Source: Rhizodiscina lignyota
Lineage: Eukaryota
Length of the DNA stretch: 64,000 nt
Direction: 5' to 3'
NCBI GenBank assembly: GCA_010015805.1
Contig: ML978129.1
Coordinates: forward strand, 806,001-870,000
Part shown: positions 20,157-62,321 of the stretch, one piece after another
How positions within the stretch are numbered: position 1 is the first letter of the stretch
How the letters are laid out: every line of letters starts with the position of its first letter
Translations under genes and position numbers: made by a program
Notes under the pieces: model-generated
The model's input: the letters and a program-made list of their open reading frames with translations, nothing else
Told to the model about the DNA's origin: nothing
The model's database searches: none

Positions 20157-20456
20157 CTCGATGCAAGGGCGCAGGAAGCTTTCGCTTGATTTTAGGTTCA
20201 CTTTGACTATGGAAGCCTATTAGTCTTTAAGCTAGTTCCTCAGTGAGTATGTAGCACTCAAACCAGAGTAACAAATTCCCACCAACCATTATCACGATTA
20301 CTCTCTGAACACATCCATCGTCGTTGCTAACGTCACGTGATGTGTATTTTTAGCGCGGGGCGAGCGCCAAGATTTCCGCTCCCACAAGAATTCCACACTT
20401 TTAAACATCGTGAACTTGCGCTTCTTCCTGCGTCAACTCAAATTATCATCACCAAC

Positions 20457-22304
20457 ATGGCGCCGATTTCACTTGTTGATGTTGTTGGGGCAATGCCCGA
20501 AACAACAGATAAATGGGGCCCCTCCGAAACGAAAGACACGATGATAAATGGCGTGCCATATGCGCCATACTCAAAATCGGACAAACTTGGACGCATGGCC
20601 GACTGGACAGAAGGGAAGGACAGAGACCGGGGAGGAAGACAGCAGTATGGCGGCAGAAACTACAGAGGTGCGACTCTGCGAACTAAGTGTAATCGATTCC
20701 ACGTCATTACTAACTTCTAGAAGACCAGCAAACGTACGGCGCGAATCAACAGAATCCATTTGCGATCCAAGCAGCGGAAGAAGAAGCTACTTTCTCAGTT
20801 GTCGACAACACCCGCACATCAGCAAGAACTCGAGGCTTCGGTCGAGGAGGTGGGACTATCTTCCGAGGTCGGGGACAACGTGGTGGCCAAACACAACGTG
20901 GAGGACGAGGTACATTCCAGCGTGTTGGAGGAAGAGGTGGGCAACAGGGATACGATTCGCGCGGCGGCCGAGGTGGCAGGCGCGGAGGCCGTTATGGATG
21001 GAGAGACGACAAGCCACAGCGCAATCGGGATGCCTCGGTCAACGTCAAGCCAGACTGGACGCTTCTGGAAGAAATTGACTTTGTCAGACTGGCGAAGCTC
21101 AATCTGGAGACAAATGAGGGCGAGGAGATTGATAGCTATGGCTTTCTCTACTACTACGATAAGGCCTACGACCGGAACCCGGGAGCGAAGACCTCAGAGA
21201 GGAAACTCAACGTTCTTGAACGAGCTGCGTACAATGTCACAACCTCAAGCGACCCTATCATCCAAGATCTCGCAGATAAGGACGAAGCAACCGTTTTTGC
21301 TACCGACAATATTCTCAGCATGCTCATGTGTGCCCCTCGCTCCGTCCATTCCTGGGACCTTGTCATCACTCATCAGGGCAACAAGATCTTCATTGACAAG
21401 AGAGAAGGTTCAAACCTGGACATGGTCACTGTGAATGAGAACGCGGCTGACGCGCCTCTTGAGGCTTCTGAGGGCAACAAGGACACCATCAACAGCCCTA
21501 GTGCGCTAATGATGGAGGCGACGCATATCAACAACGTCTTCCCCATCCAAGTTGTTATTGAGTCCGACACTCAAAGAAAAGACATGGCAAACGAGCATCC
21601 ATTCTACAATCCGAATGTTGAGACCGACCCTCCAGCTTCGAAAGCGTACAAGTACCGCCGATTCGATCTCTCTCTGGAGCGCGATGAGGAGCCGCTGCAC
21701 CTGATCGTCCGAACAGAGCTCGATGCGATAATGAAGAATAACATCAGCGGAGACGACCAATATCTCGTCATCAAGGCCCTGAACGAATTTGATAGCAAGG
21801 CGCCAGGAAGCGGCGGTGCTCTTGACTGGCGGTCCAACCTCTCCAGCAGACGCGGTGCTGTCGTTGCTACTGAGATGAAGAATAACAGCTGCAAGCTTGC
21901 CAGATGGACTGTACAGTCGGTGCTTGCCAACGCAGATGTCATGAGGCTTGGGTAAGTCTATTTTCCGAATCGCTGTGGGTGCACTTTTCTGACATGAGCA
22001 TAGATTTGTCTCCCGCGCAAACCCCCGAACGCCGAACGACCACGTCATTCTCGGCGTGCTGCCCTACAAGCCTCGTGATTTCGCGGCTCAGATGAATCTG
22101 AACCTTGCGAATGGCTGGGGTATTGTGAGGACGATTGTCGACATGTGTCTCAAGATGTCAGAGGGCAAGTACGTGCTCATCAAGGATCCCAACAAGAGCG
22201 TGCTGCGCCTGTACCAGGTGCCTAATGATACCTTTGAGGAAGAGGGTAGCATTGCAGGAACTCAGACGATAGAGGAGGCTGATGGTGAGGAAGGTGGTTC
22301 GTAA
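20457..22304 (+). CDS. moe1: Eukaryotic translation initiation factor 3 subunit D
   Basis: [20 protein letters not shown]-rich tract, [40 protein letters not shown]. Introns at ~20668-20723 and ~21952-22003. Confidence 0.93.
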
Positions 22305-22865
22305 GAATATGGATTGGCCCGGGAATGACTGGATGGTTGAATCGAGCAGTTCATTCGAATAATGCGATACGAAAAACGGCGTGACGCATTAAAATCAGTG
22401 CAAGAAGCCTTTATCTCAGCCGGACAGTCTTCATTATGAGCCACGAACAATTTATGTTCTGTGTGTGTAAATTGATACGGATTCATAAGCACTCACTGGG
22501 TGAATTAGCTACCAAGTTGTGTTATGGCGTCTGCTCCTCTTCGACAATTTCAACTTAAACTTGAATAGTAGTTTGCTTTTGTCATCTGGAGAAAGGGTAA
22601 TCATCCGTACTGTGCATTATCGAACCGGTGATGTGTTCTGAATTCAAATAGAGCGGTTAGTTAACGTGGACGGTAAATTCGGTTGGGAGTAGAACAGACC
22701 GGACGGAGTTATTGGATGTGATCTAAATGTAGATCGATCAGTGCCCCTGAAAGCTTAACATTTGTAAAGAATCATCTAAATAAAGTCTGCAGGGGAGAAA
22801 ATACAAGGGGCGAATCTTGAAGCAGTGATAGAATCCATAGAAACACAACTTTTTTTAGATTGAAA

Positions 22866-22881
22866 TACTATATATATAGTA
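22866..22881 (+). promoter_or_regulatory. Palindromic TATA element about 30-40 bp upstream of the tRNA gene
   Basis: TACTATATATATAGTA, a perfect palindrome, at the position expected for TBP/TFIIIB binding. Confidence 0.6.
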
Positions 22882-22908
22882 CACAATTTCAAATCTCAGA
22901 AATTTTAC

Positions 22909-23048
22909 TCCGTTATGGTGTATCGGCTAGCATCGCCCGCGTCAGTTTACCTCTCCCGTCTTTTACTCCAACAATTGACTAACGTCCAATCAGTTTCATT
23001 CAGAAAGCTCGTGCCGGGCAGAGCCGGGTTCGACTCCCGGTAACGGAA
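22909..23048 (+). tRNA. tRNA-Glu(TTC) interrupted by a 53-nt spliceosomal-type intron (22941-22993) and a 15-nt canonical tRNA intron (22999-23013)
   Basis: Acceptor stem TCCGTTA/TAACGGA; D arm GTGT-ATCGGCTA-GCAT; anticodon stem GCCCG/CGGGC; T arm CCGGG-TTCGACT-CCCGG. After both excisions the anticodon loop is C-T-TTC-A-C. The body resembles fungal tRNA-Glu. Confidence 0.9.
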
Positions 23049-23053
23049 ATATC

Positions 23054-23058
23054 TTTTT
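23054..23058 (+). terminator. RNA polymerase III terminator (T5)
   Basis: TTTTT begins 6 nt after the tRNA 3' end; longer T runs follow at ~23081-23100. Confidence 0.65.
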
Positions 23059-23889
23059 GGCCTTCTCGACTCAGTATTTATTTTTTGGGGTTTATTTTTT
23101 GATGAATTGAAATTCTAGACTCCGAAGGCAAGCTAAATGTCGGAAACGCTTCTTCGGCGCAGCTTGTACGGTGGAAAAGCGGGACGTACGAGGGTCGACG
23201 AAGCCTCTTCAACCCAAGGCACCCACTTCGAACAGCACGCATAGTTCGCGCGGAGATGGTTCTTCGGTGACAACCGAACACGTTAAACAACGACATATGT
23301 ACTGAGCAGAGAAGACTCATTCAGATAAGCGCATGACTAGAGAGCGGCACATTTATTCTGTGAGGTATGTCCTTCACGAGGCCGGGCCAATTATTCATAT
23401 GCATCTTCGGTGAACCATCTTCAATTATTGGTCTACGGGAGTCATAACACGTGTGTACTGCGACACGAATCCTCTTCCACAGGGAACGTACGATGTAAAT
23501 AACAGTAGGCCGGCTACGAAGAAGCGCTGTCGAGACCAGCTGTACGGTCAAAGCAGGACCCTATCGCGCATTCGTTTGATTTTGCGATGTGTGAGCGCCT
23601 GATGCTTAATATCGCTCGGTCACTGGACAATTTTCTCGTTATATACCTCGGGTGGGAGCTTCTGTCGAGGCTCGAGCTTTGTAGAGCCCCTAGAGGGGAG
23701 CGAGGTTGACGCGGGCACCATGCTTGTCTCACAGTTAGCACATGAGATTGAGCTTCCAACATTTCGGAGGCACCGATTGCATGTATTGGCCTGAATTTGG
23801 CCGTCGCACTGGCGCCGCTGGGATCGCATTGTGGTTTGATAGTGCTGTTTGGTTTCACAGTTCTCTTATCCTGTATGCTCATTGCATCG

Positions 23890-61076: not shown

Positions 61077-62321
61077 TCATGGCAATGCAGCGTTCAAGTT
61101 ATCGAGGAGAGGTGAGAGCAGAGCAGTCTCGCTGGACGGCTTAAGTCTATTTTCCCAGTACCAAAATAGGAATTGAACCAATCGTGTGCTCTTTCTCCAC
61201 CCATTACAAAAACTCATAAAGAACAGCTTTGAGAAGCTGCTAGCCGCAAAGAACCAGAACCCATCGGGAGAAATTAAAGGCATTGTGCTCCACCTCCGTC
61301 CGCCTATTCAGAAATTCCATCAAGTCCTATCCGTAACCGTTTTGACACGCTCTGATGCCCTATTGTGTAGGCCCACCAAGACTGGTTGCGCAGTTGGATG
61401 TATGATACGAACGACGGCGACAACAACCTCTAAAACTGGTTCCTCATCAGTATCGACATCGCTCAAAGCTGTCGGGGAGTCCAGCTTTACCCCTATAGGC
61501 TCCTCATTCTGTTGTCGCAAAGGAGATGTCACTTCCGTATCAGTAGCAGAAGTCGTAGTGACCGTGTCTTTGCTTGCAGCGCCTTCTGTTTGCTCGCTCT
61601 GTTTTCCTCGTGATCCTTTGCCTCAGTTGTGTAGACTCGTTAAGACAGAGTCGTCTGCAATCCAACCGATAAACGTCGTCGGCTCATTGACTATGCGAGA
61701 GAGCATAATACCGCTTGTTTTCGGAGACACAGGAGCCTTTTGTCTTCGCATCTTCTCTTTAAGCCTTCTCCGCTTACGGCGATCGTTTTTCTCGGCCGCT
61801 GTGTACGCGTCAGAGGGAGCTCCACTTGTCGATGAGCACTGTAAGTCGGCAGGGTCGGTGGCGTGGACGCAGGAAGAGGAGGATTTAGTTGATTTGCAAG
61901 TTTCATTGACAGACGTGCTGCGGTTCTGATCCCTGGCGGATTGGTCTGTGTTGACATCAATGTCTGTAGAGCGCGAAAAATCGGGTTTGACAAAATACCT
62001 TCCGAGTTCTCGTGCACTCTTTTATTCCTGTGGACCTTGTTGGTGTCGGCTTCATGCTGCGACGCGACGACAACGTTCTCTTCTGGTTCTGACCCCACAG
62101 GGGAGTCCAAAGGGGAAGGGGCGGTCTTCTCTTGCGTCAAGACACCCATGGCGAAGAATGAGGAGATAAAAGCAGAAGATATGACAGCGGTGAAGTATTG
62201 ATCATATGTGTGAAACGATAAACAGTCAAGTTGAAGGTATGGCCTGATTGACCGATCACTTGGGTATCTCTTTCCAGTAGTGGACGAGGTCTCCCTGCCA
62301 CATGAATGTTGTGTTCGCCAT
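61077..62321 (-). pseudogene. Degenerate protein-like reading frames
   Basis: Protein-like segments (TM-like FTAVISSAFISSFFAMGV, basic KNDRRKRRRLKEKMRRQK, acidic DVDTDEE) spread over different frames with stops. Confidence 0.3.

Follow-up and report, generated by a model that had tools for sequence, protein, structure and literature searches.

A tRNA-Glu(UUC) gene with a spliceosome-type intron and a tRNA-type intron on either side of its anticodon

We analyzed a 64-kb window of Rhizodiscina lignyota DNA (64,000 nucleotides [nt] of contig ML978129.1; all positions below are counted from the first letter of this window). On the forward strand, 22909–23048 is an ascomycete nuclear tRNA-Glu(UUC) gene with two introns of different kinds. 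A 53-nt intron with the signals of a spliceosomal intron lies between C32 and U33, and a 15-nt intron lies at 37/38, the canonical site of introns that the tRNA splicing endonuclease (TSEN) cuts. From the letters of the DNA, we judge it likely that both introns are spliced, the outer one by the spliceosome and the inner one by TSEN, in a gene of the RNA polymerase III (Pol III) type. What the sequences themselves show is the anatomy of the gene, the splice signals of the outer intron, the recurrence of the arrangement in nine other distinct tRNA-Glu genes, and the selection visible on the exons.

Exon 1 (22909–22940, mature nt 1–32) starts at T22909 and ends with C32. It contains the 5′ strand of the acceptor stem, the D arm with its A-box-like TGGTGTATCGG, the 5′ strand of the anticodon stem, and C32 itself. 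The 53-nt intron follows at 22941–22993 (GTCAGT ... ACTAAC ... CAG). A 5-nt micro-exon, TTTCA (22994–22998; U33 to A37), then holds the anticodon TTC at 22995–22997 and separates the outer intron from the inner one, TTCAGAAAGCTCGTG at 22999–23013, which is inserted between A37 and C38. The 3′ exon (23014–23048) runs from C38 to the discriminator A and includes the B box GGTTCGACTCC at 23027–23037. The base pairs U5-A67 and G27-C43 are diagnostic of this gene. A first-pass annotation of this DNA had proposed the same 53-nt and 15-nt introns, and on re-reading the sequence all of its coordinates were correct.

The splice signals of the outer intron sit where the tRNA demands them. The 5′ splice site GTCAGT (22941–22946) and the 3′ splice site CAG (22991–22993) fall exactly at the borders fixed by the tRNA exons, and the branch motif ACTAAC (22978–22983) places the branch A at 22982, 11 nt before the 3′ end. 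By our own arithmetic, which assumes equal base frequencies, roughly 3 in 100,000 random 53-mers would fit GTNNGY ... CTRAY 4–18 nt ahead of a terminal AG. As a local yardstick, we used a 52-nt candidate intron (GTAAGT..CTGAC..TAG; 21952–22003, forward strand) that joins two open frames of the neighboring eIF3d gene. By sequence, the 53-nt insert fits the local mRNA introns in both length and signals; the median length over all pattern-matched candidates in the window, many of which are chance matches, is 64 nt. The fold of the 53-nt intron on its own, with a 7-bp helix GUCAGUU/AAUUGAC, was not beyond chance (z −0.89; 35 of 200 shuffles folded equally well or better) and was discarded as a meaningful structure.

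In default mode, ARAGORN called no tRNA in the 64-kb window, and no Rfam family reached its gathering score there; with E values up to 10, the sole Rfam match was a 17-nt T arm to mascRNA. With introns allowed, ARAGORN misnames the gene as tRNA-Thr(CGU) with a 68-nt intron at 31/32, i(32,68). We removed each GT..AG segment of 35–90 nt from the gene in turn and gave the product to ARAGORN. The only excision that yielded tRNA-Glu was 22941–22993, and its product was called tRNA-Glu(ttc), with the 15-nt intron placed canonically, i(38,15). We also performed a blind excise-and-scan with GTNNGY..CTRAY..AG candidates from both strands of the window and from all loci fetched for the comparison below (n = 224, of which 174 were in the window). 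A tRNA appeared across the junction in 16 of the 224, all of them tRNA-Glu genes of the present set, and in 0 of the other 208. Within the window, only one candidate of 174 gave a junction-spanning tRNA, and it was again 22941–22993. Automatic tRNA sets of such fungi are likely to be incomplete or wrong. A second B-box-like match in the window, GGTTCAATTCC at 61169–61179 on the reverse strand, had no tRNA around it by ARAGORN or by excise-and-scan.

The arrangement recurs in other genes. One scan of metagenome contigs for tRNA-Glu-like ends 85–115 nt apart returned 19 loci (given L numbers here); by its design, the scan was restricted to inserts that lie between mature nt 14 and 51 and add up to 49–79 nt. 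Fifteen of the 19 loci are tRNA-Glu genes (TTC or CTC) with a 49–55-nt GT..AG insert as well as a 7–25-nt intron at 37/38. L003, L006, and L018 were dropped as tandem pairs of ordinary intron-less tRNA genes 0–8 nt apart with Glu-type ends, and L014 was dropped when no tRNA-Glu was obtained from it. For several loci, ARAGORN accepted two to four alternative excisions differing by a few nt, and for L008/L015 it accepted one unrelated extra; the excision was chosen among the alternatives by a GTNNGY start and an anticodon at position 34. Merging identical and near-identical copies left nine distinct genes, or ten including that of the window, with seven insertion sites. The insert lies after mature nt 20 in L001 (CTC), the L002 group, the L013 group, and L007; after nt 24 in the L008 group; after nt 26 in L004/L012/L017; after nt 32 in the window; after nt 48 in L019; after nt 49 in L005; and after nt 50 in L011 (CTC). 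In the nine relatives, the outer intron falls in the D loop, in the D stem, at the 26/27 junction, or in the T stem. All ten distinct inserts start with GTNNGY, have a single CTAAY 10–13 nt before the terminal AG, and are 49–55 nt long.

Apart from these signals, the interiors of the inserts are unrelated, except in L002 and L013, which share an insertion site (z 7.9; the next best pair scored 2.2). As far as the data go, the inserts do not appear to be copies of one mobile element. We found no second copy of the 53-nt intron in the 64-kb window, and an introner or introner-like family was rejected on this single copy and on the dissimilar intron cores of the ten genes other than the L002/L013 pair. 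A bulge-helix-bulge identity for the inserts was rejected as well: a central plus outer helix was found in 0 of 10 inserts and a bare 4-bp helix in 1 of 10, by a relaxed geometric criterion under which random junction pairs scored 41 of 2000. Two of the loci make a separate observation. L004 (601–740, reverse strand) and L008 (601–747, forward strand) give an identical 72-nt tRNA-Glu(UUC) after in silico splicing, while their spliceosome-type introns differ in sequence and lie two bases apart, after nt 26 and nt 24, respectively. This pattern points to independent gains or to intron sliding.

The architecture of the gene suggests that the precursor is probably a Pol III product. The type-2 features in the window are the A-box-like element at 22916–22926, which resembles the A-box consensus, the B box in the 3′ exon, and a terminator-like T5 run at 23054–23058, 6 nt past the tRNA 3′ end. 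Further T6 runs lie downstream at 23081–23086 and 23095–23100, and a TATA-like element (22869–22878) lies 31–40 nt 5′ of the tRNA start, with TATA at offsets −40 and −36. Across the set, the DNA has intact A and B boxes, a run of at least four T starts 6–20 nt downstream in 10 of 10 distinct genes, and TATA is found within ~60 nt upstream in 8 of 10. None of the ten introns has an internal run of five or more T. The longest is the T4 at 22961–22964 in the outer intron of the window, and the others have runs of three at most. For Saccharomyces cerevisiae Pol III in vitro, the available text of PMC9278858 (this and the other articles cited here are represented by the parts accessible to us) reports no detectable release at T4, intermediate release at T5, and efficient release at T6, with T4 termination needing adjacent RNA structure or Sen1. 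The first-pass annotation had called this T4 the longest T run of the outer intron and compatible with read-through; the first statement is correct and the second is reasonable.

A Pol II origin of the precursor seems unlikely. Transcription would in that case read through from eIF3d, which lies on the same strand ~600 nt upstream with its last open frame ending at 22304, or would start at the TATA-like element, which could serve either polymerase, and the tRNA would be cut from a longer capped transcript. Such an origin would suit the spliceosome, which normally acts on Pol II transcripts. It does not suit the intact A and B boxes or the downstream run of at least four T in every distinct gene (in the window, the T5 at +6), which are hallmarks of Pol III, and an AATAAA at 22781–22786 lies between the last eIF3d open frame and the tRNA. 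The related loci do not help it either: their 600-nt flanks hold no consistent same-strand upstream open frame, and we rejected a same-strand upstream gene as a general feature of the set.

Next to the anticodon, the inner intron has the look of an ordinary tRNA intron. Its GAAAG (23003–23007) is complementary to C32–C36, as the first-pass annotation had said, and G23011 is its antepenultimate base. When the 15-nt intron is shuffled with its composition kept, a 5-bp Watson-Crick duplex with the loop arises in 1.7% of the shuffles, or in 9% when G-U pairs are allowed. Introns of eukaryotic tRNAs are described as pairing with N33–N35 or nearby loop bases, with an anticodon-intron (A-I) pair between C32 or U32 and the antepenultimate purine extending the helix into a bulge-helix-loop, and fungal introns at 37/38 as being removed by TSEN plus Trl1 (PMC10275265, PMC4090602). 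The background given in the annotation, namely the A-I pair and a fixed distance from the tRNA body as determinants of TSEN cutting, agrees with the accessible parts of these sources.

We folded the RNA with and without the 53 nt. Without the 53 nt, the anticodon arm folds into its stem plus a 5-bp CUUUC/GAAAG helix; a 5-nt loop holds the 5′ site, and the 3′ site lies within a bulge of 7 nt. C32 can pair with either G23007, as in the minimum-energy fold, or G23011, as in the A-I pair, and never with both. The earlier proposal that G23011 pairs with C32 was thus right about the antepenultimate position and about the possibility of the pair, while the minimum-energy fold uses the other G. The annotation had also held that the target of the helix becomes contiguous only once the 53 nt are gone. 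This is true in that C32 and U33 are joined only then; however, four of the five pairs (UUUC/GAAA) are already formed in the unspliced precursor, and removal of the 53 nt adds the C32 pair and stacking on the anticodon stem. The comparison of the folded forms came out the same way, with a canonical bulge-helix-loop only in the absence of the 53 nt but with the tRNA body and the UUUC/GAAA helix already present in the full precursor.

The relatives place this pairing in context. At position −3 of the inner intron, 8 of 10 distinct genes have G, L005 has C, and L008 has U. In L007, where the outer intron is far from the loop, GAAAG is followed by a 3-nt bulge in the textbook form, and L008 and L019 also pair from C32. 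The inner introns of the window and of L008 both start with TTCAG, and the two mature tRNAs differ at two base pairs only. Because relatives whose outer intron is far from the anticodon loop show the same pairing, we read the match in the window as inherited. It is best read from these sequences as a generic bulge-helix-loop feature that came from a gene with a contiguous loop, and not as an ordering device. The simplest reading of the set is that the tRNA intron is older and that spliceosome-type introns were added later at differing places. For the window, it is most likely that the tRNA intron, with its GAAAG/CUUUC helix and −3 G, came first, and that the spliceosomal intron was later inserted into the 5′ strand of that helix.

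Maturation would then proceed as follows. Pol III would probably transcribe the precursor, reading through the internal T4. The nuclear spliceosome would excise the 53 nt and join C32 to U33, and the standard bulge-helix-loop pre-tRNA that results would be exported. TSEN and the tRNA ligase would finally excise the 15 nt. The first-pass annotation had derived this order from the match between intron and loop. The match is generic and also found in the relatives, and does not carry that conclusion; a spliceosome-first order nevertheless appears most likely on other grounds. The first is that the canonical TSEN substrate exists only once the 53 nt have been removed. In the primary transcript, with 53 nt between C32 and the TSEN 5′ site, there is no intact mature domain that keeps a fixed spacing to the two splice sites; only the form without the 53 nt has one. 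The second is that the outer intron in the nine relatives breaks an arm or the junction, so that there is no mature domain before the first splicing. A third ground is compartmentation. The budding and fission yeast lineages bracket the Pezizomycotina. In both of these yeasts, TSEN resides on the cytoplasmic face of mitochondria (PMC10275265, in its accessible part), and with a nuclear spliceosome and the cytoplasmic TSEN of yeast, compartmentation alone would therefore put the spliceosome first.

It is rather improbable that the two introns are removed without a fixed order, with TSEN cutting the 15-nt intron, or its 3′ site, before the spliceosome acts. In the minimum-energy fold of the full 140-nt precursor, the acceptor, D, anticodon, and T stems and the 4-bp UUUC/GAAA helix do form, and the 3′ splice site lies at a normal distance from the body on the 3′ strand, which would favor early cutting. 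The 5′ cut is the difficulty. In the ruler model, cut sites are set by a fixed distance from the tRNA body (PMC10275265; PMC4090602, as available to us). Applied to the unspliced RNA, this rule would put the 5′ cut within GUCAGU (GUCAG/U), six bases beyond the anticodon stem. The anticodon and the 5′ splice site would both be lost, and the loop left behind, CGUCAGC, would be useless. In addition, TSEN is cytoplasmic in yeast, and a product cut first by TSEN would have to return to the nucleus. The nine relatives argue in the same direction, as their outer introns break the D arm, the T arm, or the 26/27 junction and leave no mature domain for TSEN.

Comparison of the exons across the set strongly argues that they are under tRNA-type constraint, and thereby against decaying pseudogenes as a class. 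In seven 72-nt in silico products, all 147 of 147 helix cells are standard pairs, with compensatory double changes in 6 of 21 pairs. L004 and L017 are identical in 247 of 280 flank positions, 72 of 72 exon positions, and 51 of 52 intron positions. The flanks of L002 and L013 align only in part, yet the exons are identical (72/72), and the introns match at 42 of 48 positions with the splice signals unchanged. We also observed that the intron of L004/L017 (51/52) is more conserved than the upstream flank (247/280), which suggests either constraint on the intron interior or gene conversion between the copies.

These data bear on whether the gene of the window might be dead, that is, a tRNA-Glu gene with a 15-nt intron that was knocked out by a 53-nt insertion merely resembling an intron. 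We consider this improbable. Its exons are without a flaw and, once the insert is excised, form a cloverleaf with a high score, full splice signals stand at the exact borders against a low chance expectation, and the TATA and the T5/T6 runs are kept in the flanks. Nine other distinct genes have the same architecture, with exons identical at 72 of 72 positions despite diverging flanks and with compensatory changes in the stems. In favor of a dead gene are the site itself, as 32/33 has no counterpart among the 15 related loci, and the internal T4.

One-piece removal of both introns could not give tRNA-Glu, because the anticodon sits between them. A single 68-nt intervening sequence, giving either a tRNA-Thr(CGU) with a 31/32 intron, as ARAGORN with introns allowed has it, or, by a 37/38 cut that the ruler model might be expected to set six nt past the anticodon stem, a Glu body with the loop CGUCAGC (anticodon UCA, G33), is very improbable: the body is of the Glu type and agrees with those of 15 tRNA-Glu genes whose anticodons are TTC or CTC, not one of the ten inserts shows a bulge-helix-bulge that would support a 31/32 intron, G33 would make a poor tRNA (to our knowledge, U33 is near-universal in tRNAs), and the complete TTTCA segment between the GT..AG insert and the canonical intron would be left unexplained.

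Several points weigh against a doubly spliced gene of the Pol III type. Splicing itself, its order, and the polymerase, and with them every processing step, are things that we infer from DNA. None of the 15 related genes has an intron at 32/33. That every match has both introns is partly ascertainment from the scan pattern. The same holds for the confinement of the introns between the A and B boxes, which we rejected as evidence since the pattern covered only nt 14–51. Avoidance of T runs was rejected as a Pol III signature, as the summed longest runs did not differ significantly from those of shuffled introns (P about 0.10). No other intron of the set has a T4 like that of the window, at which a part of the transcripts could be lost. 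Only for U6 has it been documented that uncapped Pol III transcripts are spliced in vivo. The complementarity between loop and inner intron is modestly beyond chance and is weak in the relatives L001, L004, and L005, and the minimum-energy fold, with its 7-nt 3′ bulge and C32-G23007 pair, is unlike the textbook form, which has an A-I pair and a bulge of 3 nt. Finally, the genome may hold intron-free tRNA-Glu(UUC) paralogues, and the copy in the window could be dispensable.

Introns of the mRNA type have been described in other small RNA genes of fungi. The accessible part of PMC5855946 reports them in U6 genes, including the sole U6 gene of Schizosaccharomyces pombe, U6 of Rhodotorula hasegawae, and those of many yeasts, at varied positions, and also in the genes for the U1, U2, and U5 small nuclear RNAs. 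Like the gene of the window, these are genes for small structured noncoding RNAs (U6 being transcribed by Pol III) with short introns that are canonical at the 5′ splice site, at the branch site, and at the 3′ splice site; as here, the introns are otherwise unconserved, vary in position, and are often lineage-specific (PMC5855946). Unlike those hosts, a tRNA is no component of the spliceosome, and closeness to the catalytic center does not explain the gain. The present RNA also has a TSEN-type intron, which would bring two unrelated splicing systems to one 72-nt product. Spliceosomal introns are known as well from ascomycete rRNA genes (Bhattacharya et al. 2000, as cited in PMC5855946, in the part available to us). 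These too are spliceosome-type introns in Ascomycota in a gene outside Pol II, whereas the host there is a Pol I gene with a long RNA and with no adjoining enzyme-cut intron. The introns of Pol III-transcribed U6 and of rRNA genes therefore provide a precedent for spliceosomal introns outside Pol II genes.

As in canonical tRNA introns, the 15-nt intron lies at 37/38, pairs with C32–C36, carries a purine at −3, and, after loss of the 53 nt, keeps its two splice sites single-stranded. It differs in that another intron divides the 5′ strand of its helix in the primary transcript and in that the 3′ bulge is predicted to span 7 nt rather than 3. For Cyanidioschyzon merolae and archaea, the accessible parts of PMC3728597 and PMC4090602 describe multiple and ectopic tRNA introns, which are endonuclease substrates. 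They share with the present genes the presence of more than one intron per tRNA gene, some at non-canonical positions. Theirs, however, have the bulge-helix-bulge form, while the present inserts have the GT..CTAAY..AG form and none of the ten is a bulge-helix-bulge. In the literature that we searched, which lay largely outside the subscription journals, we found no published description of a spliceosomal intron in a tRNA gene. We rate the gene, on its sequence, as an addition to a known phenomenon, the spliceosomal intron in a small noncoding RNA gene; what would be new is a tRNA host that also has its own TSEN intron.

The 64-kb window reads as ascomycete nuclear DNA. The tRNA gene lies in the gap between two convergent genes, eIF3d on the forward strand (open frames 20331–22304; Atlas score 0.98 against Ascomycota eIF3d clusters) and a Zn2Cys6-type regulator on the reverse strand. 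One assembly (X1), possibly the source of the window itself, has identical letters over the stretch of the tRNA gene, and matching at 80% likeness gave this one contig, in which neither joints nor paralogues appeared. Several short direct repeats are present around the gene. TCAGTTT, read by eye, occurs at 22942–22948, at the start of the 53-nt intron, and again at 22990–22996, across its 3′ border. TTTTACTCC occurs at 22903–22911, spanning the 5′ end of the tRNA, and at 22961–22969 within the 53-nt intron. TCAGAAA occurs at 22896–22902 in the leader and at 23000–23006 in the 15-nt intron. These repeats are probably due to chance, though they could bear on the origin of the intron.

Taken with its relatives, the gene makes it somewhat probable that ascomycetes have repeatedly gained spliceosomal introns in tRNA genes of the Pol III type, at no fewer than seven sites in tRNA-Glu alone, with two splicing machines acting in series and, in the gene of the window, in an obligatory order. 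That order would be a reasonable consequence of the anatomy, with the match between intron and loop an ordinary, inherited feature. If the reading is true at the RNA level, this would be the first case that we could find of a tRNA dependent on the spliceosome as well as on the tRNA endonuclease, and such genes would follow U6 as a second class, in nature, of Pol III genes that carry spliceosomal introns. They would offer natural tests of the spliceosome on uncapped Pol III transcripts in vivo, of the order of nuclear and cytoplasmic steps, and of intron gain in structured RNAs. Fungal tRNA gene sets, and isoacceptors that are apparently missing from them, may be wrong wherever such genes occur. 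If the introns were indeed gained repeatedly, tRNAs would by nature lend themselves to intron gain, with reverse splicing into abundant RNAs as one example of a route. The gene of the window would then be the extreme case, with both introns in the anticodon loop, where an error in which TSEN acts first would destroy the tRNA.

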